Of a stretch of DNA of 64,000 nucleotides, positions 1 to 34,353 are shown one piece after another; the stretch's first letter is position 1; each line of letters starts with the position of its first letter. The notes below the pieces were generated by a model. The model worked only from the letters and a program-made list of their open reading frames with translations. It did not search any database and was not told where the DNA came from. Source of the DNA: an uncultured Flavihumibacter sp. (GTDB lineage Bacteria; Bacteroidota; Bacteroidia; Chitinophagales; Chitinophagaceae); NCBI GenBank assembly GCA_964245425.1, contig CAXTMV010000001.1, forward strand, positions 13,979 to 77,978, read 5' to 3'. A program made the translations under genes and the position numbers.

Positions 1-1
1 A

Positions 2-1297
2 CCCACCATTGGCAATTTCAATATCGTGGGCATTGGCGAAGTCTATAAGCCAGTTCCCAGTCGCGCAGACAGCATCGAGGCGGTTCATTTCAAAACTGCT
101 TTGAAGGATGCTTACGCTTTCGGAAGCATTGACTTTGTGCAACCAGTGAGGGCAGCATTGAATATGGCTGCCATTAACACACAGGCCGCCGCTGCCCTCC
201 ATCCCTCGGTTAGCATACAAAAGCGTTTATGGAGCCAATTAAAGATCCCCGATCGCATCAAAGCTGGCATGACGGAAACTTTTACACCGGTGATGGCTTA
301 TCCTGAACTGGATATGCCCATGTATAAGCCGTTAAGTGATTTGTCGGCTGAATTATTCCTTCCGAATATTAACCTGATTGCCCAGAATTCAGTGACCTTA
401 CTACAGAACAACCAGCGGTTCATTGAATCCTATATGGTGGGTCTCAACCATGAGATGTCAAGAGAACTGTTATGGCGGGAATACCCGACCGATCAGCGCG
501 GCAGCTATTTCAGGCAGTTCTGGGACATCAGTAATTTTCTACCCGTTTCCGGACAAATACCGGATGTATTACGGGAAAAGTTAAGGGATATATATCCGAT
601 TCACTTATGGCCAACCATCCCCAGTCCGCAGAAACCCCTTCAGCATAAGCTGGGTAAACACAATCCCCGGGCCGACAATAACCAGCCCGACAATATTGTA
701 ATGGTGGTTCGCGGAGACTTACTGAAAAGATATCCTACCGCCGTTATCTATGCGCAGTTAGCAGACTGGGGGAAAAACGCAAACGGCGTGGCGGATATTC
801 ATGAAGACAGGGTATTGATCGATCTGAGCGACGCAGAAAGACAAAACCCCGGCGACCATCCTGACAAAATACAGACGCCGCTTTTTCAGGCGAAAGTGGA
901 TCCGGATATTTATTTTTTCGGATTTGATCTTACCGCACAACAGGCACTTGGCGATCCAAACCCCAGCAGTACCAGTAATAAACCGGGCTGGTTTTTTGTG
1001 ATCAAGGAAAGGCCGGGCGAACCCCGGTTCGGGCTAGATGAAAATCTTTCTGCTCATATTTATAACTGGAATGATTTGTCCTGGCAAAATACAGGTATTG
1101 CAGATGGAAAAAACATCGTGCTCAACAGCAGCATTGTTATTGAAACCGACCCTGCACCAGGCACCGATAATAAGAACAACAAGGAAGATGCGCAGGCGCA
1201 GTGGAACCCGCAAACCAATGCGGCATCGCTCGCTTACATACTTTTCCAGGCACCTGTATTGGTTGCAGTACATGCCTCCAAAATGTTACCGGCATAA
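2..1297 (+). CDS. 5'-truncated CDS: C-terminal 431 aa of an uncharacterised large protein, the first visible gene of the giant-protein operon
   Basis: Frame 2 is open from nt 2 to the TAA at 1295-1297, with no stop before the GTG at 26 used by the ORF track. The gene therefore most likely starts left of the window. The gap to the next gene is 20 nt. No family recognised. Conspicuous motif: LNHEMSRELLWREYPTDQRGSYFRQFWD. Confidence 0.8.
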   Translation, partial: PTIGNFNIVGIGEVYKPVPSRADSIEAVHFKTALKDAYAFGSIDFVQPVRAALNMAAINTQAAAALHPSVSIQKRLWSQLKIPDRIKAGMTETFTPVMAYPELDMPMYKPLSDLSAELFLPNINLIAQNSVTLLQNNQRFIESYMVGLNHEMSRELLWREYPTDQRGSYFRQFWDISNFLPVSGQIPDVLREKLRDIYPIHLWPTIPSPQKPLQHKLGKHNPRADNNQPDNIVMVVRGDLLKRYPTAVIYAQLADWGKNANGVADIHEDRVLIDLSDAERQNPGDHPDKIQTPLFQAKVDPDIYFFGFDLTAQQALGDPNPSSTSNKPGWFFVIKERPGEPRFGLDENLSAHIYNWNDLSWQNTGIADGKNIVLNSSIVIETDPAPGTDNKNNKEDAQAQWNPQTNAASLAYILFQAPVLVAVHASKMLPA

Positions 1298-1317
1298 CCC
1301 ATCCTAACTGAATAAAG

Positions 1318-4300
1318 ATGACCGATTTTAAGCAACAACAAACGGATATTAAAACTGCGCGCCTGCAATCGGAAACGATTGCCCGGCAACTACGTGAAAC
1401 AAAAGAAAAACTGCGATCGGCTGAAACCCTTTTGCAAACTGCCGGCAGGATGGCCAACAACAGCAACACGGCCGATATAGCAACTTTGCAAAAGCTCCGC
1501 GACGGATTACAAACGCAACTGACAGATTTATACGGCAAAGTAAAATCGGCCACGCAAAACAGCCATGCATTACTGAATAGTTTTGCACAGGGAACTGACC
1601 CCACCAAGCAAATAACCGAACTAGACGATAGCTTCCCATTCCTGCTGTTTCCGTTAAGGCTGCAAACGCGGTTCAAAACAATCACGCAGGCAGGTGCGCT
1701 GCAACACGAATTGTGGCTGCGGATTTATCCAGATGATTGCCAGGTCAGTGCCAAAGAAGACATGTTGTCTGAATCTGAGATCACCTCTGTGCAATCTTTC
1801 TGGAAACAGATCTGGCAGGCTGGTGGCATGGAAGCAGACCAACGGGGCGCATGGAGAAACTTGGTGGATAATTTCGGGGCGGGCCGCGCATCATGGATAA
1901 CAGAAAAATATACTCCGCTAAACCCGGCCGACAAAAAGTTAAAACACAGCCAGCAGGATATCATACTTGTTATTGTACCCGGTAAATCTTTTACCGTGGC
2001 CCAGGAAACAGCGGCCTTTTCGTTCTGGCAAAAATACTGGCGGGCGGGTACCGATGCAGCTGCCCGGGACCAGGCAATCGCGGCTCTGAAGGCCGCTATA
2101 GGAGATACTGCTGTCAGCATGCTGACAGATTTCAGGCCTTTCAACCTCGACATCAATCCCCTTCCGGGATATCAGCGGGCAGACCTGGATGTGCAGGTGG
2201 TAAAACTCGTTTTTCCTGCCGCGGCAGACATTATTGCAGCAGGCGTTTCCTGGTTGCAGGCACCCGCCGTTAATACCCTGCCGGAAAGATTTGTGGCCAT
2301 GTGCTACAGCAACGGACAACTGGTTAAAGAACAAACCGGCAATTTGCTACCGGATAAACTGGCCACCGGGCCGGACCCTTCGCTTCCCGACAATGAACAA
2401 CTGAAAGCCACCGACGACGGCAATCTTTTTGTGAACGATGATCTTGCATGGATGGTTGATTTCGACATGGCCATTGCAGCCGGAATGGGCATGAAAATAA
2501 GCCTGACTGCCGATCAGGCACTAACAGGTTTCGACAAGATCATTGTGCTTGGCCTCAGGCTGTCATCGGATGCGCAGGACGGCGCCACACTGCTCGGTAA
2601 TTTATTCAGCAGTCATTATTACAGCAAAAATGGTTTTGGCCTCTTACCACAGGGAACACCTACCAACAATACGGAAAAAGAAGCGGCCGGCTACAGCAAA
2701 ACAGAAGACCCAGATCAGAGCTACAACAGGCTGTTCAATGCCAGCGAAAGTTATGCTGTTACGGCCGATCCATTACAGAAGAAAGACGGTCAGTGGCTGG
2801 CCGAATACCTGGGCATTGACCCATTGTTTTTCACGAAAACACAGGGTGCTGCGGGTCGCGACCAGGGAGAGGCACGGGCAATGAATATTGCTTTATGGCC
2901 GGCTACCCTGGGTTATTTTATGGAAGAAATGATGCATCCGGCGTTCAGCGCGGCCGATATCGCACAAACCCGCCTTTTCTTCAACCAGTATGTTTCCGGC
3001 AGGGGACCTGTACCTGCTATCAGGATTGGCAGGCAACCCTATGGTATCTTACCGGCTACCGCTTTTTCCCGGTTAAGCTTCAACGTTACTCCCACCATAC
3101 CCGGCATCCTGCCACTGCCAGTGAACACATTCATGCCCAGGTTATACAACGTGATCAAAAAAATAGACACCGATTGGGGAAACCTGGTGCCTGGTGTGGC
3201 CCATATCAGCAAAGACGGCGATACCGATCAATTACTGGTGGATATCCTCGGCCTTCATTCCGGTTCTGTTGAATTTCACCAGCGGTACCTTGAAAGCCTG
3301 GAACATATCTATAACCTGGTTTCACTACAGGGTGGCAGCGTGCAGGCCCAAACGGTGGCCGATATTACCAACCAGAAAGCTGCTGCCGTAACCAGGCTCA
3401 TAGGCTATAACTTCACCCAATTGCTACCCATCCTGCAGAAGTATTTCATGGGAAATTCCCACCCGCTAACAGGTCCGCTGGTCGATGATACACCGCTTTC
3501 AGAAACAGATCCGATCCGGAAGTACAGCGCCGATGGTAAAAACTATATTGAATGGCTGGCTGCCGCTACGGTGGAACAGGTACGAATACAGGATTTTGGC
3601 GGCCATCCTGCGCCTGCGGCACTTTTATATTTGATGCTGCGGCATGCGTTAATGATGGCACAAGCCGATGCAGCTGCTCAATTGCATGTTTCGAAAGGAT
3701 TGGAAACAGATAAAACCTTGTTTCATGACCCAGCCTTCATACAGGTGAAAGCGGCGGGTGGAGGCAAAAGCAAATGGGAATATCTCTATAAAAAAGAACC
3801 CCGCATTACAGGCGACGACACACAGATAAGTGACTATATCTACAAACCTGCTGTGCTCGGTAAGATTACCGAAACAAAAAACCTGGCCGATACGCTCCAG
3901 GCGCTGGCTTTTCTGGAAGGCAGTTCTACTTCTGCGCTCGAAAGAGTTTTTACCGAACATATCGATTGCTGCCAGTATCGCCTGGATGCATGGAGAACCG
4001 GGCTTGTGAATGCCAAATTAACGGAGCAACGCCGCCTGCAGCAAACGGGTGACAACTGGTCCAAAGGCATTTACCTGGGTTGTTATGGCTCGCTTGAAAA
4101 TATAAGGCCCAAAAAACAAGCGCTTGAACCGGTCGTATTGAGTGATGAACTAAAAAATATTTTCAGCGGCAGCGAGCCTCTGGTAAGAGACAATACCAAT
4201 TTGGGGTTTATTCATGCCCCGTCGCTCAACCAGGCGGCCACGGGGGCTATCTTGCGCAATGCTTTTGAAACACATAAAAGTGCCGACCCCCAGGCCGTAA

Positions 4301-6885
4301 ATCCTTTTGCCATCAACCTTTCTTCTGAGCGGGTACGGTTGGCCAACCAGTTTCTGGAAGGCATCCGCAACGGGCAATCGCTTGCCGCATTGCTGGGATA
4401 CCAGTTTGAAAGAGGGCTTCACGACAAATACGGTTTGGGGAAAGGCGAAGTCGATAAGTTTATTTATCCGCTTCGGAAACAATTCCCCCTGGTGGCTAAC
4501 CAGCTCAAAGAAACGCAGACAACGGGCGAAGACGACAAGAACACTCCGATTGATTCGCTGGAAGCCAGGAATGTAATAGACGGCTTACAATTGGTAAAAC
4601 ATATTCAATTGTCTGCGCAGCCATCGTACCCTTTCGGTATTGCAACCGGTACCGCACAAAATCAACTGCCCGTTGCCAATGCCGTACAAACACAGGCAAT
4701 CTCCCAGGAAGCGCAAAGACTCGTGGATATACAGGACGCCATTGCCGATATGGTAACAGCCGAAAGTGTTTACCAGTCTGTACAGGGCAATTTTGAAAGG
4801 GCTGCCGGAAATACCGATGCATTCAGCAAAGGCGGCTATCCACCGGACATACAGGTGGTGGATACGCCACGTACCGGCACCAGCCTTACACAGCGGGTAG
4901 GCATCCAGTTTGATACCGCCGCCAGCCCCTCCGACTCACCCTCTGCGGTGAAGCGCATGACGCCCAGGGCCGCACTGGAACCGTCTGTAAACAAATGGCT
5001 GGCAGACATCTTGCCGCCATCAGAAAAAGTGCTGTGCCGGGTTTCTTACCAATCGCCTGTAGGCGGTAGTAAAATAGAGCAAGTTATTTCACAGAAAGAT
5101 CTGGGTCTTCAATCGATTGATCTTTTGTACCTGTTTACATTAGACAACGAACAATCCATGACCCCCCTCAACGACCGGATGATGGGTTATATAAAAACAA
5201 CATTTGACCCGCATCCGGGGTTGCAGGTGAAAATTGAATACAGCAGGATCATCGACAACACTGACCGTTCCAACACCTCCTTTTTTGAACTGGCCGCATT
5301 GATCAGAAGCTTACGGAAATTGCTGCAGCAATCAAGAGCGCTGCACGCAGCCGATATCGGTTTACCACAGGAAATGCGCGGCGCAGATATCGTATACGAT
5401 CATGCGCAGTTGGCAGATCGGCTCAATATCCTCGCAAATGACCTGCGTGTACATGCGACGAACCTGGGTACACTGTTGAACAGCAATGCCAGCATTGAAC
5501 CGTTTATTGACGCGGCAAGTACCGAATTTCAATCGATTGCCCTCTTTGGCATACCCCAGGCTGCCATTGGTTTTATGTATGAGGGACGGAAAAATATCTA
5601 TACCACTGCAGGCGACAGGCTAACGGTCATGACCGAAAGATGGCGACAGAAAAACGCCGACTATACACTGACCATGTCTGGTTTCGATGCACAAGCCAAC
5701 ACAGCTGATATGATCCTGCTTCTGCAAAAAGCAGAACGGCTGATAGCTACCAGTTATGATTTGCCCATTCCGCCTTTGAACGATTACAAAAACAGTATCC
5801 AGGCAAAAAAAGCAGATTTCGATACCATATTCAACCAGCTTACCGCACTCCTAACTGCGCCCGTTACATCCGTTACGGATTATCTTGACCAATTGGATAT
5901 TGTATTGGCAAAGGCCGCCGAACACGACGCCATCGCCTTTAACACAGATACGCAGTTGAATAATACAGCAGCAGAAAGAATCCTGGCCGCAACGCTACTG
6001 GATCAAATCAAAGCAGCTTCCGGCAACCTGCTCTCCGAGCTGAATAAACGGCTGACCGATTATACCAACTTAACGGATGGGATCAACGATATCCCACTTA
6101 GCAGCGCCAAAACCGACCAGCTGATGAACGCGGCAAAGAAAATAGGAGGAGACGACGTACTTGTGTTGCCGCATTTTACACTGCCGGCATCGCAGGGCGA
6201 TGAATTGGAAAATGCTTATAACAATGGAAGCAGCCTGCTTAATTACCTCACTACCGTATTGAAAAAAACATCCCCGGTAGACGACTGGTTATACAGCCTC
6301 GCCAGGGTAAGGGAAAAATTATTCCAGCTCGAAAACAGTTTTGTACTGGCAGAAGGCCTTCGCCCCTCGCTGTCGTTGGCCCTTACGCCTTTGCAATTGC
6401 CGTTTCAAACCGGTGATCAGTATCGCTGGCTGGCCATGCAATACCACCAGGACGATGAAAATTTCGACATCCCGTCGGATACCCTGCTGTATACAGCACA
6501 TTACGCGTTGGGTTTTAGCAAACAGGCACCGCAATGCGGTGTGCTGATCGATGAATGGACGGAAGTCATTCCCTCCAAACAGGAAACAACCGGTATCAGT
6601 TTCCATTTCGACCAGCCGAATACGGAACCACCACAGGTAATGTTATTGGTAGTACCGCCTGTTATGAAGGGCAAATGGAACTGGGCCGATCTGGCAGACA
6701 GCGTGCTGGAAACTTTTGACCTGGCAAAAAAACGCGGCGTTGAACCGCAGCAACTGGATGGAACAGCCTATGCACAGTTTCTTCCCGCAACAGTAATGGC
6801 GGTAACGCTGTACTGGATTACCGTTGCCACCAACCTGGCCAATAACAATATGATTTATGATAAAATAAATACGGTAACCCGCTGA
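1318..6885 (+). CDS. uncharacterised giant protein, 1855 aa, with an N-terminal coiled coil
   Basis: Uninterrupted 5.6-kb ORF with an ATG start. No signal peptide. The first ~100 aa are heptad-like and rich in Q, L, K and E. These are followed by the motifs FPFLLFPLRLQTRF, LWLRIYPDD and RIGRQPYGILP. I found no catalytic signature (no Walker A, HExxH or YD/RHS). Confidence 0.9.
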   Translation: MTDFKQQQTDIKTARLQSETIARQLRETKEKLRSAETLLQTAGRMANNSNTADIATLQKLRDGLQTQLTDLYGKVKSATQNSHALLNSFAQGTDPTKQITELDDSFPFLLFPLRLQTRFKTITQAGALQHELWLRIYPDDCQVSAKEDMLSESEITSVQSFWKQIWQAGGMEADQRGAWRNLVDNFGAGRASWITEKYTPLNPADKKLKHSQQDIILVIVPGKSFTVAQETAAFSFWQKYWRAGTDAAARDQAIAALKAAIGDTAVSMLTDFRPFNLDINPLPGYQRADLDVQVVKLVFPAAADIIAAGVSWLQAPAVNTLPERFVAMCYSNGQLVKEQTGNLLPDKLATGPDPSLPDNEQLKATDDGNLFVNDDLAWMVDFDMAIAAGMGMKISLTADQALTGFDKIIVLGLRLSSDAQDGATLLGNLFSSHYYSKNGFGLLPQGTPTNNTEKEAAGYSKTEDPDQSYNRLFNASESYAVTADPLQKKDGQWLAEYLGIDPLFFTKTQGAAGRDQGEARAMNIALWPATLGYFMEEMMHPAFSAADIAQTRLFFNQYVSGRGPVPAIRIGRQPYGILPATAFSRLSFNVTPTIPGILPLPVNTFMPRLYNVIKKIDTDWGNLVPGVAHISKDGDTDQLLVDILGLHSGSVEFHQRYLESLEHIYNLVSLQGGSVQAQTVADITNQKAAAVTRLIGYNFTQLLPILQKYFMGNSHPLTGPLVDDTPLSETDPIRKYSADGKNYIEWLAAATVEQVRIQDFGGHPAPAALLYLMLRHALMMAQADAAAQLHVSKGLETDKTLFHDPAFIQVKAAGGGKSKWEYLYKKEPRITGDDTQISDYIYKPAVLGKITETKNLADTLQALAFLEGSSTSALERVFTEHIDCCQYRLDAWRTGLVNAKLTEQRRLQQTGDNWSKGIYLGCYGSLENIRPKKQALEPVVLSDELKNIFSGSEPLVRDNTNLGFIHAPSLNQAATGAILRNAFETHKSADPQAVNPFAINLSSERVRLANQFLEGIRNGQSLAALLGYQFERGLHDKYGLGKGEVDKFIYPLRKQFPLVANQLKETQTTGEDDKNTPIDSLEARNVIDGLQLVKHIQLSAQPSYPFGIATGTAQNQLPVANAVQTQAISQEAQRLVDIQDAIADMVTAESVYQSVQGNFERAAGNTDAFSKGGYPPDIQVVDTPRTGTSLTQRVGIQFDTAASPSDSPSAVKRMTPRAALEPSVNKWLADILPPSEKVLCRVSYQSPVGGSKIEQVISQKDLGLQSIDLLYLFTLDNEQSMTPLNDRMMGYIKTTFDPHPGLQVKIEYSRIIDNTDRSNTSFFELAALIRSLRKLLQQSRALHAADIGLPQEMRGADIVYDHAQLADRLNILANDLRVHATNLGTLLNSNASIEPFIDAASTEFQSIALFGIPQAAIGFMYEGRKNIYTTAGDRLTVMTERWRQKNADYTLTMSGFDAQANTADMILLLQKAERLIATSYDLPIPPLNDYKNSIQAKKADFDTIFNQLTALLTAPVTSVTDYLDQLDIVLAKAAEHDAIAFNTDTQLNNTAAERILAATLLDQIKAASGNLLSELNKRLTDYTNLTDGINDIPLSSAKTDQLMNAAKKIGGDDVLVLPHFTLPASQGDELENAYNNGSSLLNYLTTVLKKTSPVDDWLYSLARVREKLFQLENSFVLAEGLRPSLSLALTPLQLPFQTGDQYRWLAMQYHQDDENFDIPSDTLLYTAHYALGFSKQAPQCGVLIDEWTEVIPSKQETTGISFHFDQPNTEPPQVMLLVVPPVMKGKWNWADLADSVLETFDLAKKRGVEPQQLDGTAYAQFLPATVMAVTLYWITVATNLANNNMIYDKINTVTR

Positions 6886-6887
6886 TC

Positions 6888-8978
6888 ATGGATATAAAAT
6901 ATGCCATCCCCAATATTTCACAGGCGCTAACGCAAAGACTGTATCCGACCGTATTACTGTGGAATCGCCTGGAAGGCAGGCCCAGAACGCATGATTTTGA
7001 CCGCGCCCTGAAAGCGGAGCTAAGAGATGCGCTGTGGATGCTCACCAAACAGTGGCAGATGGGTGAGTTCGAAGGAGAGGATGCCGGTTCGCCGGTATTT
7101 GCAAAAGCACAGCTGTCTGCTACCCGGCTCAGTAAATATAAAGCCGCAGGGAATACCGCACAGGAGTACGAAGAAAACCTTCCCCTCGAAACAAAAGTAG
7201 AACAACGAAAGTTGGTGTTCGAGCGGGAAGGTCAGCGGGTAAGCCTCGATATCCGGCTGCTGATGGGGCGGCAATGGCTGAAATTAATCAAAGCTGTTCC
7301 CGGCGCCGCAGGCATGTTCATCGGCCTGTATCCTTTTCAGCTTCCGCCGCAGAACAACGCCTCCGCATTGCTGTATGCACATGCGAAAGACTGGCAGCAG
7401 TATGCTGCCATTAGCGGACGTTGCATGGATGGCTACCTGCTATACCAGTATTTAAAAGCGCAGTCGGTTCATCAGGCCTCAGACGGCCTTCAACCCATGC
7501 CATCAGACAGCGACAGGCAAAAGATTGATGCCGCCGGCGCTGTTTTTACCAGCTGGTTTGAAGCGCTTTACTATCAACCCGTCTCAGCCGACAACAACGC
7601 GTGGGAACCAGATCGGCTGGAATACCGGTTCGGCTGTTCCGCACCCGATGGAATAAAAGAAAAGGTACTGACCGCAGAAGAATATTACAGCGGCCATTTA
7701 GATTGGTATTCATTTAATTTCGATCCCACCCAATCTACCCTGGGCGCCGTGCCGGGTACGGATACCTCCATTACTGCCAAAAAAATTACCAATACTTTTA
7801 TTCCCGCCACCGTACAATTTCCGGGCATGCCCAATACGCGCTGGTGGACTTTTGAAGATGGTAAAACCAGTTTTGGCAACGTTAATCCATCCACCACCGA
7901 TCTTTCCAAATTATTACTGATGGAATTTGCACTGATCTATGCGAACGACTGGTTCATTGTTCCTTTTACTGTTCCCAATGGCTCGCTTGCCACCATAGAA
8001 GGCTTGTCAGTCACCAATAATTTCGGTGAAAGGTTCTGGATAACTGCCGCATCAAAAAACACCGGCAATCATTTGAAGGACTGGAATATGTTCAGTCTCG
8101 ATTCAAAAAAACTACCACCTTCCGTTCCCACTCCTTCTGCGGGCTTATTGCTGGCGCCCGCCGCTATTAAAGTGCAGCAGGGAAACCCGCTTGAAAACAT
8201 ACAATTGATCAGGGATGAGATGGCGAATATGGTTTGGGCGATAGAATCAGTTGTACCAGCCGTAACCGGCCAGGGCACAAATGGAAAAGAGTATGGCCAG
8301 GAAGTTTTTAATTACCAGCAAAACCTGGTACAGTTAAAATTAAAAATGGCCGGCGAAACCAACCTGTTGCTGGCAGATATCAATGCCATCAGCGGCACCC
8401 TGCCGGCGGGTTTGCAGGAAGCAAAAACAATACTGCAAAATATCCTGAACGCCCTCGCCAACCCTGTAAGCGATATTGTACTGTTGCAGGATCGGTTAGC
8501 CGATGCCAAACAAAAAATGAAAACCGAAGGAATGAATACCGTACATGAAACCGATGTATTGAACACGGATATCCCCTATGCCGCCAATATCAGCTACCAG
8601 GCAATGACTGCCGTTCCGGAACACTGGATACCCTTTGTGCCTGTGCATATAAAGGCTACTGATAACCGTGAGATTCAATTGCAACGTGCTTCCATGCTTA
8701 GGATTATTGAGGGGGATCCTGATATACCTGTAAAGATTAAAGCGCAGACCTCGTTGATGCGTGAAGGGCTTGACCAAATACCCAAACAGGCTTATTACCT
8801 GCATGAAGAAGAAGTGCCGAGGGCGGGCATTAATGTTTCTGTTGCCTTCCAGCGTACCCGCTGGACAAATGGCGAAGTATTTACCTGGGTGGGCAATGAA
8901 AAAACAAGTGGCAGGGGAGAAGGTTCCAGCGGGCTGGCTTTTGATAAGCTGGCAGATTCAAATGTAAACAACAAATAA
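6888..8978 (+). CDS. uncharacterised protein, 696 aa
   Basis: The ATG lies 2 nt after the preceding stop. No signal peptide. Motif blocks: LLWNRLEGRPRTHDFDRALKAELRDALWMLTKQWQMGEFEGEDAGSP and NTRWWTFEDG...EFALIYANDWFIVPF. No family recognised. Confidence 0.9.
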   Translation: MDIKYAIPNISQALTQRLYPTVLLWNRLEGRPRTHDFDRALKAELRDALWMLTKQWQMGEFEGEDAGSPVFAKAQLSATRLSKYKAAGNTAQEYEENLPLETKVEQRKLVFEREGQRVSLDIRLLMGRQWLKLIKAVPGAAGMFIGLYPFQLPPQNNASALLYAHAKDWQQYAAISGRCMDGYLLYQYLKAQSVHQASDGLQPMPSDSDRQKIDAAGAVFTSWFEALYYQPVSADNNAWEPDRLEYRFGCSAPDGIKEKVLTAEEYYSGHLDWYSFNFDPTQSTLGAVPGTDTSITAKKITNTFIPATVQFPGMPNTRWWTFEDGKTSFGNVNPSTTDLSKLLLMEFALIYANDWFIVPFTVPNGSLATIEGLSVTNNFGERFWITAASKNTGNHLKDWNMFSLDSKKLPPSVPTPSAGLLLAPAAIKVQQGNPLENIQLIRDEMANMVWAIESVVPAVTGQGTNGKEYGQEVFNYQQNLVQLKLKMAGETNLLLADINAISGTLPAGLQEAKTILQNILNALANPVSDIVLLQDRLADAKQKMKTEGMNTVHETDVLNTDIPYAANISYQAMTAVPEHWIPFVPVHIKATDNREIQLQRASMLRIIEGDPDIPVKIKAQTSLMREGLDQIPKQAYYLHEEEVPRAGINVSVAFQRTRWTNGEVFTWVGNEKTSGRGEGSSGLAFDKLADSNVNNK

Positions 8979-8985
8979 TATCCAT

Positions 8986-11568
8986 ATGGCTTGGTCAAGT
9001 CTATCCAACAGGCTGCAAAGTTTACCCGTACTTCTGGCAGGGCCCATCATCAGAAGAGCTGAAACAGCAGGTGTTTCCGTCTGGTTTATATTAAAGGAAA
9101 ACCGGCAACCTGTTTTATCTGTATACGACGGTAATACTGCTTCTTCGCCACTGATGACAGGTACGGCGGCCAACGGGATAAAGCTGGGCAATCTTGATCA
9201 TGTATATGCTTACTGCATTACTGCTGCCAGCAGCAGCAATGCAACTTTGGAAGCAGGCAAAAATTATTATTATGATATTGATTTCGGCAGCGAAAAATTG
9301 AGTGCCCTGAGTGCATCGTCAGAAAGCTTCGTTTCATTTTCTTATGATACGGCCGGTCGCCCCAGTTTTTCGCTTCCCCCCACAGACATGAATAGCGTGC
9401 GGCTGCTACACGGGTCATGCAGGAAAGCCCATGGCGAGGGGGAAGATGCACTGGAAGCGATTGATACCATACTCACCGGCGCTCTTTCCGGCAATACACT
9501 GGATCCTATAAAACGCCCCCATCAATTGTACTTTACGGGCGACCAGATTTATGCAGACGATGTAGCTGACCCGCTTTATTTTATGGTAGACGATGCGGCC
9601 AAGACATTGTTCGGACGGGAGGAGGCCATTTACACGACCGGAACAGATCCCAAACTTTTTTTTACCGCCGATGAACGAATGCCCGGCAAGCGAAATGAAA
9701 ATGATAAACTCTATACAGCTACCGGTTTTACATCAATGATAGAAGATACGCCAGAGTGCTCAAAAAGCCATCTGCTGACATTTCAGGAATATGCTGCCAT
9801 GTATCTGTTTGCCTGGTCGGATGTACTATGGCCGAAAACCATGAGCGACTGGCCAGATTTTGCAACTGTATTGCCGAAAGATAAAGACAAAAAAGTAGTA
9901 GAGTCGATGGATCCGTTTGATGGACCGCTGGAACTGACCGTGCCAACCGACAAAGGGCTGACTTTTGCGGACGAATGCATGCAACTGAAACGTTTTAAGA
10001 ACAGGCTGGCAAAAATAAGAAAGGCGCTGGCGAACATCCCTACCTATATGATTTTGGATGACCACGATATTACAGACGACTGGAACCTGAACTGGGCCTG
10101 GTGCCAGCAGGTATATTCAAAACCACTGGGGCGGCGCACCGTGCAAAATGGTTTACTGGCCTATACCATTTTCCAGGCATGGGGTAATACGCCTGATCGT
10201 TTTGCTACGGGCAAAGGCAGGGAACTATTGCAGCATATTAATGATTGGGATGGCAGTGATGGCGATCTGCCTGCACAAATGCAACAGCTGCTGAACATTC
10301 CTACCCTCAATAAAGACAGTCCGCCGGCTGATTTTGTACATCTTCCTGATACCATCGACTGGCATTTTTCTTATGAAGCATCCGGGTATACGATATTTTT
10401 TCTCGACTCCCGTACCTGGCGCCATTATCCGGCACCCGATGCCGTTGCTTTTGCCGGCCTGATCTGCGACGCCGGCTTCAATGCACAGCTGCCGGCAGTA
10501 TTGCCGGAAAAGCAGGTTGTACTGGTAGTGGCCCCTTGCCCCGTTATCGATGTTCCGTTTGTGGAAAGCCGGCAGAGAAAAGAAACCAGCCAGGATGATA
10601 TGCTGGACTCGGATTGTGAATCGTGGCCCCTGAACCGATACAGCTACGAAAAATTCTTTTCAACACTGGCTGCCCGTCTGCCCGTAAAAACAAATATGCG
10701 CCAGGGCGTTTTCGGCATCCTGTCGGGCGATGTTCATTTTGGTTTCTCAGCCCGTGCCCAGGTCTGGGGTAAAAAATTCCTGGCGGATAGCCACGATGGC
10801 ATTCAAACAAATGCGGTCTTTGCGCAACTGGTGTCCAGCGCATTTAAAAATTACCTGTCTAAGAAATGCTGCCATGGAAACACTTGCGGTCAGCGTATGA
10901 TCAGTGAATGGAAAAATACAGAAGAGATGCATATCAATGGCTATCCGCAGGGCTTGGCCGAGCCCTTAAATAATATCCCGGTCATAGGTCCACTGCTAAG
11001 CAATATGCTCCCGCCTTCTGAAAAGCGATTTGGTTTCAGGGTAACAACAGAAGGAGAAAGAGTGGTGGGCGACAGGATCGGATTTGTTATTGCCAACACC
11101 TACCCGTTTAAAGTAAACAACGAACCGGCAGTAGTGCTTACTTATGATGAGCTGAAACGCCAGCAGGTAACCAGCCTCAGCAGAACAGACTGGAAATACT
11201 ATTTGGACTGGCGGCTGGCGGAGAATACCGCCAGGTCTACGATTACCCCTACGGGTGTTCATACAGAACCACTTGACAGCATCTCGGGCCTCGCGGCTTA
11301 CCTGGCGCTGGCAAAAGACCATGGCTCAAACTATATTGATGTATGGGGCGATGGAAAAGAAATTGTTGGCCTTAACAACCTGGGTGAGATAGGGTTCCTG
11401 TTTGGAACGACCAAACAAATCAATCACAGTCTTTGGTGGCGGTTGAACCCTGCCAACAGCAATACCGTGCTTGACCCTTTTCCTCTATCGGTTTTTCATG
11501 TGCCTCTAAATTTTGATAACGATAAAGATTCGCTCGGAAATAACATTATAGAACCCGTCTTTCCATAA
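8986..11568 (+). CDS. PhoD-like metallophosphatase/phosphodiesterase-domain protein with a ~270-aa C-terminal extension (860 aa)
   Basis: PhoD-type motif series in the correct order:
- HGSC (nt 9409-9420)
- GDQIYADD (9538-9561)
- DDHDITDDW (10057-10083)
- FLDSRTWR
- SGDVH (10723-10737)
The start lies 7 nt after the previous stop. There is no Tat or Sec leader. Confidence 0.7.
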   Translation: MAWSSLSNRLQSLPVLLAGPIIRRAETAGVSVWFILKENRQPVLSVYDGNTASSPLMTGTAANGIKLGNLDHVYAYCITAASSSNATLEAGKNYYYDIDFGSEKLSALSASSESFVSFSYDTAGRPSFSLPPTDMNSVRLLHGSCRKAHGEGEDALEAIDTILTGALSGNTLDPIKRPHQLYFTGDQIYADDVADPLYFMVDDAAKTLFGREEAIYTTGTDPKLFFTADERMPGKRNENDKLYTATGFTSMIEDTPECSKSHLLTFQEYAAMYLFAWSDVLWPKTMSDWPDFATVLPKDKDKKVVESMDPFDGPLELTVPTDKGLTFADECMQLKRFKNRLAKIRKALANIPTYMILDDHDITDDWNLNWAWCQQVYSKPLGRRTVQNGLLAYTIFQAWGNTPDRFATGKGRELLQHINDWDGSDGDLPAQMQQLLNIPTLNKDSPPADFVHLPDTIDWHFSYEASGYTIFFLDSRTWRHYPAPDAVAFAGLICDAGFNAQLPAVLPEKQVVLVVAPCPVIDVPFVESRQRKETSQDDMLDSDCESWPLNRYSYEKFFSTLAARLPVKTNMRQGVFGILSGDVHFGFSARAQVWGKKFLADSHDGIQTNAVFAQLVSSAFKNYLSKKCCHGNTCGQRMISEWKNTEEMHINGYPQGLAEPLNNIPVIGPLLSNMLPPSEKRFGFRVTTEGERVVGDRIGFVIANTYPFKVNNEPAVVLTYDELKRQQVTSLSRTDWKYYLDWRLAENTARSTITPTGVHTEPLDSISGLAAYLALAKDHGSNYIDVWGDGKEIVGLNNLGEIGFLFGTTKQINHSLWWRLNPANSNTVLDPFPLSVFHVPLNFDNDKDSLGNNIIEPVFP

Positions 11569-11579
11569 TTTTTTTGCTT

Positions 11580-14500
11580 ATGGCAGAAACAATACAACAT
11601 ACCATTGTTAATGAGTTGCTGCAACTGACAAAACCATTGACAGGGGCATTGCACAGTGAGGAATCCATTGCGATTTTTTTCCTTCGCATGGGCTGGAATT
11701 TTGGTACCGATTCCGGAATGCCGATGGCCGTACTCGCTAATACCCTTGGCACACTGGCGCAATCAGCAGATTCAATCAAAGATCTGCTTGAACAGGAAGA
11801 TGCGGTGACCCTGGATAAGCTGGCAGCACTGTTGAGCCAGCTAAAATCCACTTTCGATTCCATCAGATCCTTACCCCAGGCATTTCAGGAGGCAAATCTT
11901 ACTGCAACGGAGGCAAAAGAAATTGCCGAAGACATTATTAGCCTGTTGATCGTCCAATACCTGAGCGACAATATACCCTCCCTGGCATCATTTTTCCGAT
12001 GGTTTGAAGTGATCGACCTTAAAAGCAGCGACCAGGTTCAGGCAACAGCTGCGGGAAAAATCATCCGCTTCCCTTATGCTTTTGAAATTATTAATACCAG
12101 CCGGCTGCAGAAATTGCTCAGCAATCCCTACACGGCATTCAGGGATATTTATATAATACCCTTCAACAGAACAACCATTGCCGGGGCAAAGCAATTCACT
12201 GACAAGCTATTTCCCAGGCTGGCCCAGCTGGCATCGGCTTTTGGCGCTGTTGCCGTATATGGCATCAAGCCTGCTTATGGAATTGACTTCGGAACCGTTG
12301 GCAATGACATGATAAGCGGCGCCCTCAGTCTCCGTTGGAAAATTGCACTTGGCCAGTTCTTTTTTGGTACTACTATTATGTACTCGCCCAGGGAACGGGC
12401 CAACCTGGGATGGGTGATCGTGCCTTATGGCGATTTAACCATGGATGCGAGCAACGGGAGCACCTACTTTTCACTGACATCGCATTTACAGGTTGGAGGC
12501 ATCGTCATCAGCGATGCAGGCGATGTTTCATTTGACGCAGGTGGGGACCTTACTAAAGTGGATGCCAGTTTCAATGCCGTCCGGCTACCCAAAGAGACAG
12601 CAGCACCCGTGCAAGTTTTTGGTGAGCAGGATGGAACGCATTTTGAAATCGGTTCGTTGGGTGTGGGAGCATCTTTTTCTATTGAAAGCGGCGGCCTGAA
12701 CTATGATGTTCATGTTGACATTAAAAAAGCAAAACTTGTCATAAGCGGTGCAGGGCAGGATGGCTTCCTGTCTGCCATACTACCTTCGAAACCGATTGAA
12801 ATACCTTTTGATTTCCTGTTGGGGTATTCTACAGAAAAATCATTATACCTTGGCGTTAGTGGCGGTCTTGAGCTGGCCTTGCCTGTGCATATAAGTATAT
12901 TGGATATACTGAATATTACGCAGGTAGTATTACAAGTGAAATTGCCGGGTAGTGGCCTGCAACTGGCCGCTGCCATTTCGGGCAATGTGAACCTTGGCCC
13001 TTTAACCATTTCATTTGAGCAAATAGGTCTGCAAAGCCAGCTGGATTGGATGTCTGAAGAGAAAAATATCGGGTTTGCGAATCTTTCTGTTGGATTTAAG
13101 CCCCCTAACGGGGTGGGCCTTGTAATAAATGCCGGCGGTGTAACGGGTGGCGGGTTTCTTAAATATGATGAAGATAAAGAGGAGTACTCAGGTGCCCTTG
13201 AACTTACGATCATCAATCTTATCAGTGCCAAAGCCATCGGTATCATAACCACTAAAATGCCCGATGGCAGCAAGGGTTTCTCTTTGCTCATCATCATCAC
13301 GGCTGAATTTTTGCCCCCTTACCAGCTCGGGTATGGATTTACACTCAATGCCGTTGGCGGACTGATCGGGCTGAACCGGACCGTTGTTCTCGACTCGCTG
13401 CGCGAAGGCGTACGCACCGGCGCAGTTAACCATATTATGTTTCCGCAGAATGTGGTAGCCAATGCGCCGGCTATTATCAACGATTTGAAAACCATTTTCC
13501 CGCCCCAGCAGGGGCATTTTCTCATCGGACCCATGGCCAAACTCGGATGGGGCACCCCTACCCTTATCACCCTGTCTTTCGGCCTCATCATCGAGATACC
13601 CGGCAATATTGCCATACTCGGTGTACTAAAGGTGGTGCTCCCCGATGACCAGGATCCGCTGGTCAACATTACGGTTAATTTTGCCGGTGTTCTCGACTTC
13701 GGCAAAAAAATGCTGCTCTTTGATTCTTCTCTCTATCAGTCGCGCATCCTTCAGATGACACTTGAAGGCGATATGTCGGTTCGTTTAAAATGGGGTAATG
13801 ATCCTGATTTTATTTTAACGGTTGGCGGGTTCCATCCGCAGTATACGCCACCACCACTTTCCCTGCCCACTCTTAAGCGTATAGCCATTACGGTATTAAA
13901 TAACAGTTACGGAAAAATAAGGCTGGAAGCTTACCAGGCGGTTACTTCCAATACAGTTCAGTTTGGTGCAAAGGCAGACCTGTTCTTTGGCCTGAGCTCT
14001 TTCTCGGTGGAAGGACATATGAGTTTTGATGCACTTTTCCAGTTTTCTCCTTTTGTATTCATTATCCAGGTAAGCGGGCATGTAAGCCTCAAAGCTTTTG
14101 GCGTAGGTGTCTTCAGCATCAGCCTGGATTTTTCTTTGCAGGGACCCACGCCCTGGAGAGCCAAGGGCTCCGGCAGCATCTCCTTTTTCTTCTTCAGCAT
14201 TTCTGCCGATTTTGATAAAACCTGGGGAGAAACAGATGATACCACTTTACCGCAGATCAATGTGTTGCCACAATTACTGGAAGAAATGGCAAAACCAGAA
14301 CAATGGATCGGTTTGGTGACAGCCGCCAATGGCCTGCTGGTGTCTTTGAGAAAACTGGATGAGGCCGACAGCAGCCTGTTGGTACATCCCGCAGGCGCAC
14401 TGATAGTACAGCAAAAATTAATGCCTCTTTTGCTCGATATCAATAAACTGGGCAATCAAAAAATAGCTGATATTAAAAGCGCCAGCCTGAGTGCCGCCCG

Positions 14501-15020
14501 CAGCGGCACAATTGACTTAGACCTTGCCCCAGTAAACGCAGCTTTTGCGCTGGCACAGTTCAAAGACATGACTGACGCCGACAAACTCTCCAGTCCGTCT
14601 TTTGAACAATTAATCGCCGGCGTCCGCATCAGCCTAGGCAACGGCACAATCGGCATGGGCAAAATGGTGCGGCGCGTGGTGGAATACGAGGAGATCATCA
14701 TCGATACAAAAAGAAAAAGACCTTTGAAAAAAGGACAGTCCGCCGGTTTGTTCAATCATTACCTGGTGGGCAATGCAGCTTCTAAATCCGTTTTATCTAA
14801 AAACTACCAAAACAGTCTGCAGCCATTTGCAGACAGGATAAACCTGCAGGAAGAAAGTTTTGCCGTGGCTTTCACAGACAACAACATCCTTTACCATGTC
14901 AATGCAAGTTTTAGCAGCAAGGCCATGGCCGATGATTACCTGAAAAAAGCAATCGCTGCCAACAGGAACCTGCAAGACAGTATTCATGTTATTGCCGTAA
15001 ACGAATTAAATAGTAATTAG
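11580..15020 (+). CDS. uncharacterised beta-rich giant protein (~1146 aa)
   Basis: 3.4-kb ORF. The ORF track starts at a TTG at 11574, but the ATG at 11580 is more plausible. The first ~200 aa are helical, followed by Gly-rich and hydrophobic strand-like sequence. Motifs: GGFLKYD..YSGALEL, GYGFTLNAVGGLIGLNR, VGGFHPQYTPPP. No family assigned with confidence. Confidence 0.85.
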   Translation: MAETIQHTIVNELLQLTKPLTGALHSEESIAIFFLRMGWNFGTDSGMPMAVLANTLGTLAQSADSIKDLLEQEDAVTLDKLAALLSQLKSTFDSIRSLPQAFQEANLTATEAKEIAEDIISLLIVQYLSDNIPSLASFFRWFEVIDLKSSDQVQATAAGKIIRFPYAFEIINTSRLQKLLSNPYTAFRDIYIIPFNRTTIAGAKQFTDKLFPRLAQLASAFGAVAVYGIKPAYGIDFGTVGNDMISGALSLRWKIALGQFFFGTTIMYSPRERANLGWVIVPYGDLTMDASNGSTYFSLTSHLQVGGIVISDAGDVSFDAGGDLTKVDASFNAVRLPKETAAPVQVFGEQDGTHFEIGSLGVGASFSIESGGLNYDVHVDIKKAKLVISGAGQDGFLSAILPSKPIEIPFDFLLGYSTEKSLYLGVSGGLELALPVHISILDILNITQVVLQVKLPGSGLQLAAAISGNVNLGPLTISFEQIGLQSQLDWMSEEKNIGFANLSVGFKPPNGVGLVINAGGVTGGGFLKYDEDKEEYSGALELTIINLISAKAIGIITTKMPDGSKGFSLLIIITAEFLPPYQLGYGFTLNAVGGLIGLNRTVVLDSLREGVRTGAVNHIMFPQNVVANAPAIINDLKTIFPPQQGHFLIGPMAKLGWGTPTLITLSFGLIIEIPGNIAILGVLKVVLPDDQDPLVNITVNFAGVLDFGKKMLLFDSSLYQSRILQMTLEGDMSVRLKWGNDPDFILTVGGFHPQYTPPPLSLPTLKRIAITVLNNSYGKIRLEAYQAVTSNTVQFGAKADLFFGLSSFSVEGHMSFDALFQFSPFVFIIQVSGHVSLKAFGVGVFSISLDFSLQGPTPWRAKGSGSISFFFFSISADFDKTWGETDDTTLPQINVLPQLLEEMAKPEQWIGLVTAANGLLVSLRKLDEADSSLLVHPAGALIVQQKLMPLLLDINKLGNQKIADIKSASLSAARSGTIDLDLAPVNAAFALAQFKDMTDADKLSSPSFEQLIAGVRISLGNGTIGMGKMVRRVVEYEEIIIDTKRKRPLKKGQSAGLFNHYLVGNAASKSVLSKNYQNSLQPFADRINLQEESFAVAFTDNNILYHVNASFSSKAMADDYLKKAIAANRNLQDSIHVIAVNELNSN

Positions 15021-15117
15021 ACCGCGCGGGAATGGAACGCTGATTTTTATGATGTAGCTGCAATAAAAGGTTGATGATATACTGTTCACAGCTGCACACG
15101 CCTTTGCAAAGCCCTGC

Positions 15118-16650
15118 CTACCCTGGCTTCATTATCTCCGCCACCGTTTTTTCCAGGTATTGTCTTGCTTCCAGCCGCGTGCGCAGCGTGCTGCCCGATA
15201 CCCGGTCCATTAAAAAACTTTTTGCCGCATCCTGCGGCGCTTTATTGATCTGACTTTTCATTACCACCTGCAGAAAACCCGGCAGGTTACCGCCATCAAT
15301 CGGGTCATTGTCCTGTTTGGCCGATACCTGGTTACTGCGCATGGCCGCCACCCGTTCCGGCGCTACCACAGCCGGTTCGGGCAAGTGTTGTGGTGTATTG
15401 GTTCTGGCCGTCGGCAAAGATGCCAGCGAGGTTACATTATTGGCGGCCGCATCTCGGTTAGTCAATGCCGGTAGTCCGAACACCGATTCCAGGGTGGCGG
15501 GTACAGACGCATGATCATACAAAAGGTGACTGATGCTGTTTTCCGTTGTATAGGCAGAAACTACAATGGCGGGCACCCTTACCCCGTAGCGCTTGAAATC
15601 AAAACCATACTGGTTGTATTTGCTTTGTGGCACGGTATCGCCGGGTGCAATGGCCGCCGGTGGTGCTGCATGATCATAGAATCCGCCATGCTCATCATAG
15701 GTAATGATCAGCAGGCTGTTCTCCCAAAGCGGCGAATTGCGAATGGCTTCATAGGTAGATTTGATCAGCGCTTCGCCATTCCTGATATCGTCCATGGGGT
15801 GTTGCGACTGACCGCCGGCGTAGGAATTATTAACGATATCGCCGTAATTGGGTTCAATAAACGTATACGAATAAGGATAGTTGCCATTGATATCGGACTG
15901 AAAACTTTCATAGGGATGTGTATCCCATATTTCGATGCCTTTCAGCGCTGCTACAATAGGAATAGAACCAATCAGCGGTTTTTTTTCTCCGCGGTAAAGC
16001 CGGTATCCCTTGTTGCCGCCAGGGTGCTGGCGGAACTGGTCGAAAATAGTACCATTGGGAAAGCGGAACCCGCGGATGGTTTCCCATTCTGTTGATTCTA
16101 TCAGCCTCGGACTGTGATCGAGCCCTCCCGAAGAAGCCGCGTGCACAAAGAACCGGTTGGGCCAGGTAGGCCCTGGCATGGATGCGTGCCAGTTATCACA
16201 AACAGCAAAGGCTTTCACCAGCGCATACAATACCGGCAGCTGCGCCGGCGCATTGTAGCATTTCATCACTTCTCCGAAATTAGGATTAGGCCCGCCCACT
16301 TTTGCGGATTTGGAAGTGGCGTAATTACTTACAAAACCGCTGTTGTTAATGGGCGGATAAGTTACGCCATCATATCGGGTACCCGCGCCACAGAGTTGTT
16401 CCAGCACGTCGGTGAACTCGTGGCCGGGATCGAATGGCATGATGTCATCGGCCGGGGTGCCGGCAGGATAGACCGTATCGTTAAAGCTATTTGAATTGTC
16501 TGCGCTGGCACCGTTGATGCTGGTAGCCTGCCCGGTACTGGCATCCACGCCGGTTAGACCGGAAAAACCGAGCATATGATCAAAAGACCTGTTTTCCAGC
16601 ATCAGTACAAAAACATGGGTAATCTTCGGGTTTGCCAGGTTTTGCGCCAT
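15118..16650 (-). CDS. phosphoesterase-family protein (phospholipase C / AcpA acid-phosphatase type), no signal peptide
   Basis: The N-terminus THVFVLMLENRSFDHMLGF is the hallmark of the PlcN/AcpA phosphoesterase family. The protein is 510 aa with an ATG start. It converges on the giant operon with a 97-nt gap. Confidence 0.8.
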   Translation of the reverse strand: MAQNLANPKITHVFVLMLENRSFDHMLGFSGLTGVDASTGQATSINGASADNSNSFNDTVYPAGTPADDIMPFDPGHEFTDVLEQLCGAGTRYDGVTYPPINNSGFVSNYATSKSAKVGGPNPNFGEVMKCYNAPAQLPVLYALVKAFAVCDNWHASMPGPTWPNRFFVHAASSGGLDHSPRLIESTEWETIRGFRFPNGTIFDQFRQHPGGNKGYRLYRGEKKPLIGSIPIVAALKGIEIWDTHPYESFQSDINGNYPYSYTFIEPNYGDIVNNSYAGGQSQHPMDDIRNGEALIKSTYEAIRNSPLWENSLLIITYDEHGGFYDHAAPPAAIAPGDTVPQSKYNQYGFDFKRYGVRVPAIVVSAYTTENSISHLLYDHASVPATLESVFGLPALTNRDAAANNVTSLASLPTARTNTPQHLPEPAVVAPERVAAMRSNQVSAKQDNDPIDGGNLPGFLQVVMKSQINKAPQDAAKSFLMDRVSGSTLRTRLEARQYLEKTVAEIMKPG

Positions 16651-16771
16651 CGATTCTTTTTTATGGTAAAATGATACCCGTAAATCTACAGCAGTATTGC
16701 CAGACCGGGACCTTATGTTTAATTAACAGGGGCCATCGCGGCCGGCAGTTGCCGGCCATTATTAAACGGCG

Positions 16772-16795
16772 AATCCCCACCGGTAGATGGGGATT
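16772..16795 (-). terminator. candidate intrinsic terminator downstream of the lipoprotein gene
   Basis: 8-bp stem aatcccca/tggggatt with an 8-nt loop, flanked by T-rich sequence. A second GC hairpin (ggccggc agtt gccggcc) lies at 16740-16757. Confidence 0.4.
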
Positions 16796-16866
16796 TGCTG
16801 TTTTCATAAAATGTTTAACAGGTTAATGGTCTTAATAATGGAGGGTGCATCCTGAACATCGATACT

Positions 16867-17655: not shown

Positions 17656-17756
17656 GTTGTTTTATTTTAAATCAAAATTACGGTCCGCACCAAAGACCCG
17701 GAAGCAAAAATCATTGGCGGTGGCATTGTCTCCATATCCGGCGGCCTCCATGCTAC

Positions 17757-17882
17757 AATTGGCTGATCGGCTGACTGGCTGATTGGTGGGCTGGTTGCCT
17801 GGTTGTTCGAAAACGCTTATTATATATAACAGCGAGTCCCCAGCCGGTGATGTCTGTCAGCCAACCAACCGATCAACCAATT
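17757..17882 (-). repeat. 26-bp imperfect inverted repeat (arms 17757-17782 and 17857-17882) built from GGYTGAT-type units
   Basis: 22 of 26 positions are Watson-Crick complementary. The four mismatches are C.A or A.C on the + strand, and all become G.U wobbles on the - strand. The repeat lies in the 348-nt divergent intergenic region upstream of the lipoprotein gene. Confidence 0.6.
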
Positions 17883-18003
17883 ATAAGGCGGTTGCTGCCA
17901 GCTACCCCTGTATTCCCGCCAGTACTGTGTTGCTAAAAATCGACCCGCCGGGGCGTCCTATTTTTACAGTGTAATAAAATATTAACCACTAAAAAATAGC
18001 AAC

Positions 18004-22442: not shown

Positions 22443-22447
22443 CGACT

Positions 22448-30463: not shown

Positions 30464-30618
30464 GTGTTGGCGGGCCAGTTTTATAAAATGGAAATCTATT
30501 TTTCCGCTGCCCGTCTGCCTGTTCGCTTTTCTGCCTGCCATATCATTTAAAGGTGAAACACCTTGATTTATTCAATAGACAGCCTGCATGGCTATGAAAG
30601 CAATTTCTTATACTCCAT

Positions 30619-32517: not shown

Positions 32518-32595
32518 ATAACAGGTTAAACAATTACTTTGCCAGAAAGAGGACCGTATGGCTGATGGGGGGATTGATTGTCAAAAGGCTTTGGT

Positions 32596-34343: not shown

Positions 34344-34353
34344 TAGTTTTAAT

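Follow-up and report, generated by a model that had tools for sequence, protein, structure and literature searches.

What kind of machinery is encoded by five consecutive genes that fill the first 15 kb of a stretch of DNA from an uncultured Flavihumibacter sp.? The stretch analyzed, hereafter the window, comprises 64,000 nucleotides (nt) (assembly GCA_964245425.1, contig CAXTMV010000001.1, positions 13,979 to 77,978), and the five open reading frames (ORFs), all on the + strand, occupy positions 2..15020 of it. A preceding sequence-only reading had singled them out as a conserved but unnamed multi-protein system with one recognizable enzyme, a claim that our attempts to refute it support. The five genes, g1 to g5, are one copy of a widespread, undescribed two-module system. 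The first module is g1-g2-g3, which encodes three unrelated giant proteins in constant order; the second is a variable enzyme gene, whose product lacks a signal peptide, followed directly by a gene of the DUF6603 family, here g4 and g5. Our working definition of the system, namely g1-g2-g3 co-directional and next to a DUF6603 gene that has an enzyme gene immediately before it, fits the window. As to function, we tentatively propose, at a probability of roughly 0.38, that the proteins are made in the cytoplasm and form a complex whose role is to place an exchangeable hydrolase on an extracytoplasmic target.

The five proteins had been described as orphans, which proved wrong: they have thousands of homologs, and g5 belongs to Pfam DUF6603. 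For g3 we found more than 3,464 homologs at 42-64% identity, and an exhaustive HMMER search assigned 4,973 clusters (at 50% identity) to the family with E ≤ 1e-3, 1,958 of them with E ≤ 1e-30. At least 588 of 185,579 species-representative genomes (one per GTDB species) encode a member of the family. Its hosts include Bacteroidota, Chloroflexota, Acidobacteriota, Pseudomonadota, Actinomycetota, Bacillota, Cyanobacteriota, Chlorobi-like lineages and WPS-2, and it extends to Paenibacillus, Streptomyces and haloarchaea. The order g1-g2-g3 holds in all 62 genome loci whose upstream flank is complete, which represent at least 10 bacterial phyla. In 56 of these, the immediate left neighbor of g1 is a DUF6603 gene, and in the other six the flank ends inside g1; downstream of g3 these loci share no conserved gene. 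A reciprocal metagenome scan with a DUF6603 alignment recovered 80 loci, 68 of them with enough sequence, and in 65 of the 68 the gene after DUF6603 is g1. More than 100 loci show the canonical order, enzyme-DUF6603-g1-g2-g3. Same-order co-occurrence in unrelated phyla, which the sequence-only reading had asked about, is thus very strong and extends to archaea.

In the window the order is g1-g2-g3-PhoD-DUF6603, with the enzyme and DUF6603 genes after g3, not before g1. This arrangement recurs in locus L001 (g3 59% identical), where a pentapeptide-repeat gene follows the system, and in L173 of Leptolyngbya sp. PCC 7375. The Leptolyngbya genome (JH993797.1) carries two divergent copies, L173 at ~0.41 Mb and the canonical L067 at ~3.05 Mb, and the g1 proteins of both lack the hydrophobic hairpin described below. 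The closest relative with genomic context, L175 (Logan SRR16630573 contig, 1-17935; g3 64% identical), has DUF6603 genes flanking g1-g2-g3 on both sides. Its downstream DUF6603 gene comes after a gene whose 807-aa product is unrelated to g4, and is itself followed by genes for an aspartic-protease-like protein and an S8 peptidase. L175 suggests that systems can carry several enzyme-DUF6603 modules, and because of its two-sided arrangement the locus studied here may hold another DUF6603 gene left of the window edge. The cluster probably extends in that direction.

The system is also carried on plasmids, 13 of which encode both g3 and DUF6603 (Streptomyces, Nocardia, Rhizobium, Gemmatirosa, Paraburkholderia and four haloarchaeal genera); those of Halalkalicoccus and Salinigranum have the order (enzyme)-DUF6603-g1-g2-g3. 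On plasmids of S. europaeiscabiei (L170) and Rhizobium lusitanum (L171), it is flanked by genes for pentapeptide-repeat proteins and by tyrosine recombinase genes in sets of two or three (three in L171). The pentapeptide-repeat association was rejected as a general feature: it is confined to three loci (L170, L171 and L001), and a regular-expression search of the other ~160 loci flagged L001 alone. On an S. longwoodensis plasmid (L177), a divergent gene for an RHS repeat-associated core-domain protein (3951-7268, - strand) lies a few kb from the system, a single case. A phage origin was likewise rejected, with no g3 relatives in IMG/VR and DUF6603 absent from GenBank phages. The sole GenBank-phage case, L172 (MT835531.1, 'UNVERIFIED: Bacteriophage sp.', from human feces), is an unannotated record; it encodes homologs of g2 (1816 aa) and g3 (676 aa) at 30085-37339 on the - strand and may be a bacterial contig mislabeled as phage.

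Within the window, the reported run of co-directional ORFs with short spacers was confirmed, with gaps from g1 to g5 of 20, 2, 7 and 11 nt. The last gap assumes that g5 starts at the ATG at 11580, as in the identical public protein P0121; a TTG start at 11574 would give 1148 aa and a gap of 5 nt. Proteins identical to g3, g4 and g5 are encoded on a public contig of 121,422 nt. The next gene (15118..16650) is convergent, and the cluster therefore ends at 15020. The suspected operon is supported by spacing and conserved synteny, not by promoter or terminator signals, consensus scans for which gave chance level only across the cluster. All 14 motif strings quoted by the sequence-only reading are present and fall on columns that are invariant, or nearly so, in the family alignments. 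Its stated absences also hold: regular expressions detected no Walker A motif (P-loop), HExxH motif or YD-repeat array in the five proteins (YD motif count 0-1), and a Kyte-Doolittle scan found no hydrophobic N-terminal segment in g2-g5 (no dedicated signal-peptide predictor was run). Moreover, the Pfam matches of the window proteins include no nucleoside triphosphatase (NTPase) domain.

The core proteins belong to families without a name. Single sequences of all five proteins were scanned against Pfam, NCBIfam, PADLOC (PADLOC-DB v2) and PHROGs, and no model in these collections matched g1, g2 or g3. Scanning 25-35 members of the g1 and g2 families singly (25 for g2) yielded no consistent Pfam domain; matches to DUF4131 in a few of them were rejected, as they merely reflect a transmembrane hairpin. 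When family profiles of g1, g2, g3 and g5 were compared with PDB sequences, the result was coiled-coil noise (g2) or no relative, and hhalign found no hidden paralogy among the g1, g2, g3 and DUF6603 families.

Gene g1 (2..1297, 431 aa) is open at the window edge and represents the C-terminal part of a core protein that measures ~1,110-1,120 aa in relatives; it is 61% identical to residues 675-1107 of the L001 protein and 682-1119 of the L175 protein. An island invariant in the family alignment, LNHEMSRELLWREYPTDQRGSYFRQFWD, lies at nt 443-526. Between an N-domain and a C-domain, 31 of 34 canonical members have a hairpin of very hydrophobic helices (about residue 605-650); in the window, the N-domain and hairpin fall left of the edge. 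Basic residues occur on both sides of the hairpin in the single flank inspected, that of L001. Gene g2 (1318..6885, 1855 aa) encodes a core protein with a coiled-coil-like N-terminal segment and islands FPFLLFPLRLQTRF (nt 1633-1674), LWLRIYPDD (nt 1711-1737) and RIGRQPYGILP (nt 3022-3054); its homologs, of ~1,800-1,950 aa, are encoded immediately upstream of g3 in all 62 genome loci. The third core gene, g3 (6888..8978), encodes 696 aa, in a family whose usual form is ~620 aa. The extra length includes a lineage-specific helical insert of ~80 aa (~aa 483-563, nt 8334-8576), predicted as long helices with a predicted local distance difference test (pLDDT) score of about 90, which is present in a minority of the family (forms of ~675-730 aa) and absent from the ~620-aa majority. 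Structure comparison covered AlphaFold2 models of g3 and g5. The g3 model (pLDDT 71.7; predicted template-modeling score, pTM, 0.68) has no Foldseek match, the best being E 0.83 against the PDB and 0.083 against BFVD.

The recognizable enzyme is g4 (8986..11568, 860 aa), in which the sequence-only reading had seen a PhoD-like core. Against Pfam PhoD (PF09423), g4 itself scores 15.5 bits, below the cutoff of 27. Relatives exceed the threshold (L085 at 29.9 bits; five of 44 partner proteins, best E 3.8e-10), and PF09423 is precomputed for most of the 120 best g4 homologs listed. Four motifs are evident: HGSCRK (nt 9409-9426), GDQIYADD (nt 9538-9561), DDHDITDDW (nt 10057-10083; DDH[D/E]ITDDW across the family) and GDVH within GDVHFG (nt 10726-10743). 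Ten g4-family members share invariant H142, C145, R146, G185, D186, Y189, D191 and D192, and likewise D358, D359, H360, D364, D365, W366, G581, D582 and H584, positions that we take to represent the PhoD motifs SC.., GD.IY.., DDHE/D and GD.H. The PhoD assignment therefore holds, because homologs carry the domain, relatives pass the threshold and the four motifs are invariant, and g4 appears from its sequence to be a divergent, leaderless PhoD-type metallophosphatase. It shares with PhoD the four metal-binding/catalytic motifs and a PhoD_N-like start (LAGPIIRR...VWF); unlike canonical secreted PhoD, it has no twin-arginine signal, and unlike the family at large it carries ~250 extra C-terminal residues and belongs to a subset encoded directly upstream of a DUF6603 gene. 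Its N-terminus, MAWSSLSNRLQSLPVLLAGPIIRR, contains neither the arginine pair plus hydrophobic core of a Tat signal nor any hydrophobic segment, as judged without a dedicated predictor, and the g4 family profile has no match among PDB sequences. Relatives directly upstream of DUF6603 occur in Bacteroidota, cyanobacteria, Streptomyces and a haloarchaeon, e.g. Mariniflexile (45% identity), Salinigranum (31% over full length) and Streptomyces longwoodensis. The C-terminal extension of the S. longwoodensis protein is annotated as peptidoglycan-binding and has a weak PDB match; a regular expression for peptidoglycan-binding motifs found none in it. Some cyanobacterial homologs stand alone, outside the system (Calothrix). 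The g4 family is larger than the system, and g4 therefore counts as an accessory, exchangeable and recruited to DUF6603, rather than as part of the core.

This exchangeability is general. Of 61 metagenome loci, 50 have between one and six genes on the same strand immediately before the DUF6603 start, mostly at gaps of about -30 to +30 nt, and the products of these genes were classed by clustering and Pfam. The largest class comprises trypsin/NAL1-like proteases of ~500 aa, often as two to four tandem paralogs. These carry a private helical C-terminal domain of ~125 aa (consensus LVNHNRRVTVAWHRSKGPAF; e.g. L114:7557-9095; loci L091-L168), which is found on one S8 subtilase as well (L103) and is not detectable in g4 or the core proteins. 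This may be a docking domain. Further partners are g4-type PhoD-like phosphatases, S8 subtilases, M14 carboxypeptidases, M64-like peptidases, class-A beta-lactamase-like and tocopherol-cyclase-like proteins, one tyrosinase and one galactose/glyoxal-oxidase-like protein. Most of these enzyme families are normally extracytoplasmic. The N-termini of the partners, read by eye, are hydrophilic and show no signal-peptide-like core.

Additional modules have been fused to the conserved proteins in particular lineages, known partly from annotators' names that were weakly confirmed here. Haloarchaeal g3 proteins end in a lamin-tail domain (Pfam E 7e-21), and haloarchaeal g2 proteins contain decapeptide or 'BGTF surface' repeats. 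Actinobacterial DUF6603 proteins have Kelch propellers, and some extended g3 proteins have HHH_3 and a weak Laminin_G_3. In S. longwoodensis, g1 has an insert of ~880 aa at the hairpin position; the protein is annotated as VCBS repeat-containing, and the insert has no match in the PDB.

The remaining protein, g5 (11580..15020, 1146 aa), matches DUF6603 (PF20248) with E 2.6e-126 and 422.6 bits over profile positions 7-501 of 502; the domain spans aa 445-1002 in TTG-start numbering (~nt 12906-14579). PF20248 is precomputed in 29 of 29 homologs among the matches listed. Conserved islands are GYGFTLNAVGGLIGLNR (nt 13329-13379) and VGGFHPQYTPPP (nt 13821-13856). The AlphaFold2 model (pLDDT 76.3, pTM 0.45) predicts a mainly helical N-terminal region (aa 1-~245), followed by long antiparallel strands (~aa 250-890) interrupted by short helices near 604-639. 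Foldseek reports weak local similarity of this model to SlpA, LptD, FimD/PapC, ApoB100 and SprA (E 5.7e-5 to 1e-3, template-modeling (TM) score ≤ 0.2), which is best read as a description of predicted shape, not of family membership.

That likeness to LptD, ushers, SlpA, SprA and ApoB100 raises the question of whether the system serves housekeeping biogenesis or remodeling of the envelope or cell surface, with DUF6603 as a beta-sheet protein (barrel, belt or groove) that handles a lipid or polymer and the enzyme remodeling wall polymers, e.g. as a phosphodiesterase on teichoic-acid-like or phospholipid substrates. The membrane hairpin of most g1 proteins agrees with such a role, as do the unusually high sequence conservation, the peptidoglycan-binding fusion and the M14, beta-lactamase-like and PhoD partners, which could plausibly act on wall polymers. 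However, TM scores of at most 0.2 and the lack of a signal peptide weaken the structural argument, and the system occurs in monoderms and archaea, which have no outer membrane. A core housekeeping function is also disfavored by detection in at least 588 of 185,579 species-representative genomes, by carriage on plasmids and by the presence of more than one copy in a genome, and the enzyme class varies. We consider this explanation very unlikely.

The proposal that we favor, deployment of the enzyme outside the cytoplasm, would work as follows. The proteins would be synthesized and assembled in the cytoplasm into a complex that, in most lineages, is tethered to the membrane via the g1 hairpin. 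The exchangeable hydrolase would be put onto an extracytoplasmic target, e.g. envelope polymers of the producing cell itself or of a different one. DUF6603, with its predicted helical head and very long antiparallel beta-meander, may be the enzyme's dedicated carrier, shell or conduit, and g1-g3 would be the conserved scaffold, to which some lineages have added target-binding modules on g1, g2 or g3. Because no NTPase is encoded, release or firing would need lysis, stored conformational energy or host factors. We favor this scheme because the partners are mostly of extracytoplasmic classes yet leaderless, because the enzyme is always coupled to DUF6603, because the proteases have a dedicated domain that could serve for docking, because several core proteins have independently gained surface-type binding modules, and because no NTPase or nucleic-acid-related domain is present. 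That the target lies outside the cytoplasm we infer from the partner classes and from the fused surface-type modules (lamin-tail, BGTF/decapeptide, Kelch, VCBS and peptidoglycan-binding). A more specific version, in which the four families constitute a new class of leaderless, NTPase-free nanomachine of bacteria and archaea that packages or carries an exchangeable hydrolase (phosphodiesterase, protease, tyrosinase or other) and delivers it across or onto the envelope, seems doubtful on present evidence.

Several observations weigh against deployment. No component has a signal peptide, and the flanks of the loci hold no conserved secretion, lysis or energy-supplying gene; in the window, no immunity-like small gene stands beside g4. 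The charges around the hairpin, seen in L001 only, suggest that both large g1 domains are cytoplasmic, and cyanobacterial, actinobacterial and haloarchaeal g1 proteins lack the hairpin. As toxin payloads, tyrosinase and galactose-oxidase partners would be odd, and 45-60% identity across phyla is unusually high for arms-race proteins.

Could the proteins then remain inside the cell? An intracellular scaffold or compartment that sequesters or organizes its partner enzyme, with no export, would explain why no energy source is encoded and why leaderless enzymes that would be harmful if free in the cytoplasm are encoded beside a giant beta-sheet protein. The docking-like domain of the protease partners would suit such a container too. 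However, Pfam, PDB profiles and Foldseek reveal no similarity to encapsulins, microcompartments or vaults, the binding-module fusions and membrane hairpin are left unexplained, and no obvious metabolic logic joins proteases, PhoD and tyrosinase. It is the least probable of the explanations considered; like envelope biogenesis, it is less likely than deployment or defense.

The principal rival is that the system is a membrane-associated, intracellular anti-phage or abortive-infection system, in which g1-g3 sense or transduce a signal upon infection and the adjacent protease or other hydrolase, once activated, frees DUF6603 as a membrane-perforating beta-sheet protein or itself kills the cell. 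Its logic would resemble that of gasdermin-plus-protease systems and of defense systems with swappable effectors. As in bacterial gasdermin-protease operons, all components are leaderless, and in many relatives the gene for a beta-rich protein is immediately preceded by protease genes, one to four in tandem. The effector-like gene is swappable. Moreover, the system is found on plasmids, several loci adjoin tyrosine-recombinase trios, transposases, toxin-antitoxin pairs or helicase/primase-like genes, and distant lineages share it at high identity, with two copies in Leptolyngbya PCC 7375. A weak match to the PADLOC bacterial gasdermin model (bGSDM) in g5 points the same way, although with E 0.0057 over 32 residues it is sub-significant, as is a match to PDC-S45 (E 0.05); PADLOC returned no significant match for any of the five proteins. 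DUF6603 proteins are also four to five times larger than gasdermins (~1,150 versus ~250 aa), three further giant genes are obligatory here, and in the window the partner is a phosphatase, not a protease. Further against defense, the core contains no NTPase, nuclease or sensor-type repeat (TPR, WD40, LRR), and many flanks comprise housekeeping or polysaccharide-utilization genes, not defense islands. Tyrosinase, galactose oxidase, M14 carboxypeptidase and PhoD would be atypical as cytoplasmic effectors, as would proteins with lamin-tail, VCBS, Kelch or peptidoglycan-binding fusions. We therefore regard defense as unlikely, and the evidence leans to a delivery machine over a defense complex.

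The remainder of the window suggests a Bacteroidota-like chromosome. Directly after the cluster, the convergent gene at 15118-16650 (- strand) encodes a PF04185 phosphoesterase (phospholipase C / acid phosphatase family; E 2.6e-65), a second phosphoesterase beside the PhoD-like g4. It is probably unrelated to the system, being on the opposite strand and not kept beside it elsewhere. A hybrid sensor kinase with Reg_prop and Y_Y_Y domains (19365-23221, + strand) is followed by a LytTR response regulator, as is typical of Bacteroidota chromosomes, and farther along lie genes for an Na+/H+ antiporter, for MoaC/MoaB and a ThiF-rhodanese protein (molybdenum cofactor genes), and for FabF.

Whatever its function, the system represents ~17 kb of coding capacity kept in the same order, at 40-60% identity, across at least 10 bacterial phyla and haloarchaea, and such strong conservation implies an important, mechanistically constrained function. 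Of its four core families, three lack a model in each of Pfam, NCBIfam, PHROGs and PADLOC, and solved structures include no relative of any of the four. Annotators name the proteins 'hypothetical' or after their added domains, and we found no paper on DUF6603, PF20248, IPR046538 or the system by description. Either way, its elucidation would give functions to thousands of 'hypothetical proteins' and to DUF6603, and the exchangeable enzyme module offers an experimental handle. Should the system prove to be a delivery or export device, prokaryotes would have a new means of deploying folded enzymes that needs neither Sec, Tat nor ATP; should it serve defense, it would be among the largest and most widespread defense systems still undescribed.

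How, finally, does the system compare with known machines? Profiles, PDB comparisons and Foldseek gave no significant match to Tc toxins, extracellular contractile injection systems (eCIS), type VI secretion systems (T6SS) or TamB/AsmA, in line with the sequence-only reading. The predicted long run of antiparallel strands in g5 is shared with giant beta-barrel or belt proteins (SlpA, LptD, FimD/PapC, SprA and ApoB100) and with AsmA/TamB; unlike these, g5 has neither a signal peptide nor an N-terminal anchor, the TM scores stay at or below 0.2, and the DUF6603 family extends to monoderms and haloarchaea, in which there is no outer membrane. AsmA/TamB proteins have an N-terminal membrane anchor and an AsmA or DUF490 domain, and are restricted to diderm bacteria. 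They were rejected on the absence of a Pfam match and of an N-terminal hydrophobic segment, and because Paenibacillus, Streptomyces and haloarchaea have the family too. Contractile injection systems (eCIS, T6SS and phage-tail-like) are marked by sheath, tube, baseplate and spike proteins and by an AAA+ ATPase. They were rejected for want of any Pfam or PHROGs match and of a Walker A motif, with no g3 relative in IMG/VR and L172 as the single scaffold from GenBank phages. Tc toxins (TcA/TcB/TcC) share more with the system: an operon of leaderless giants, an exchangeable enzymatic payload, a large beta-sheet-rich part, lineage-specific binding domains and no NTPase. However, the window proteins have no VRP1, SpvB, TcdB_toxin_mid or RHS domain (Pfam, NCBIfam) and no YD-repeat array, no Tc chain appears in the 50 best Foldseek PDB matches of g5 and nothing significant was found for g3, the payload is a separate gene rather than a C-terminal fusion to TcC, and the system occurs in archaea too. 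With neither Tc domains nor a PDB profile match for the g1-g5 families, a Tc toxin complex was rejected as well. Overall, the system fits no known kind, a comparison whose structural part draws on the g3 and g5 models; were the nanomachine proposal correct, proteins would be exported, or effectors delivered, by a new route that ranks with Tc toxins or contractile injection systems.

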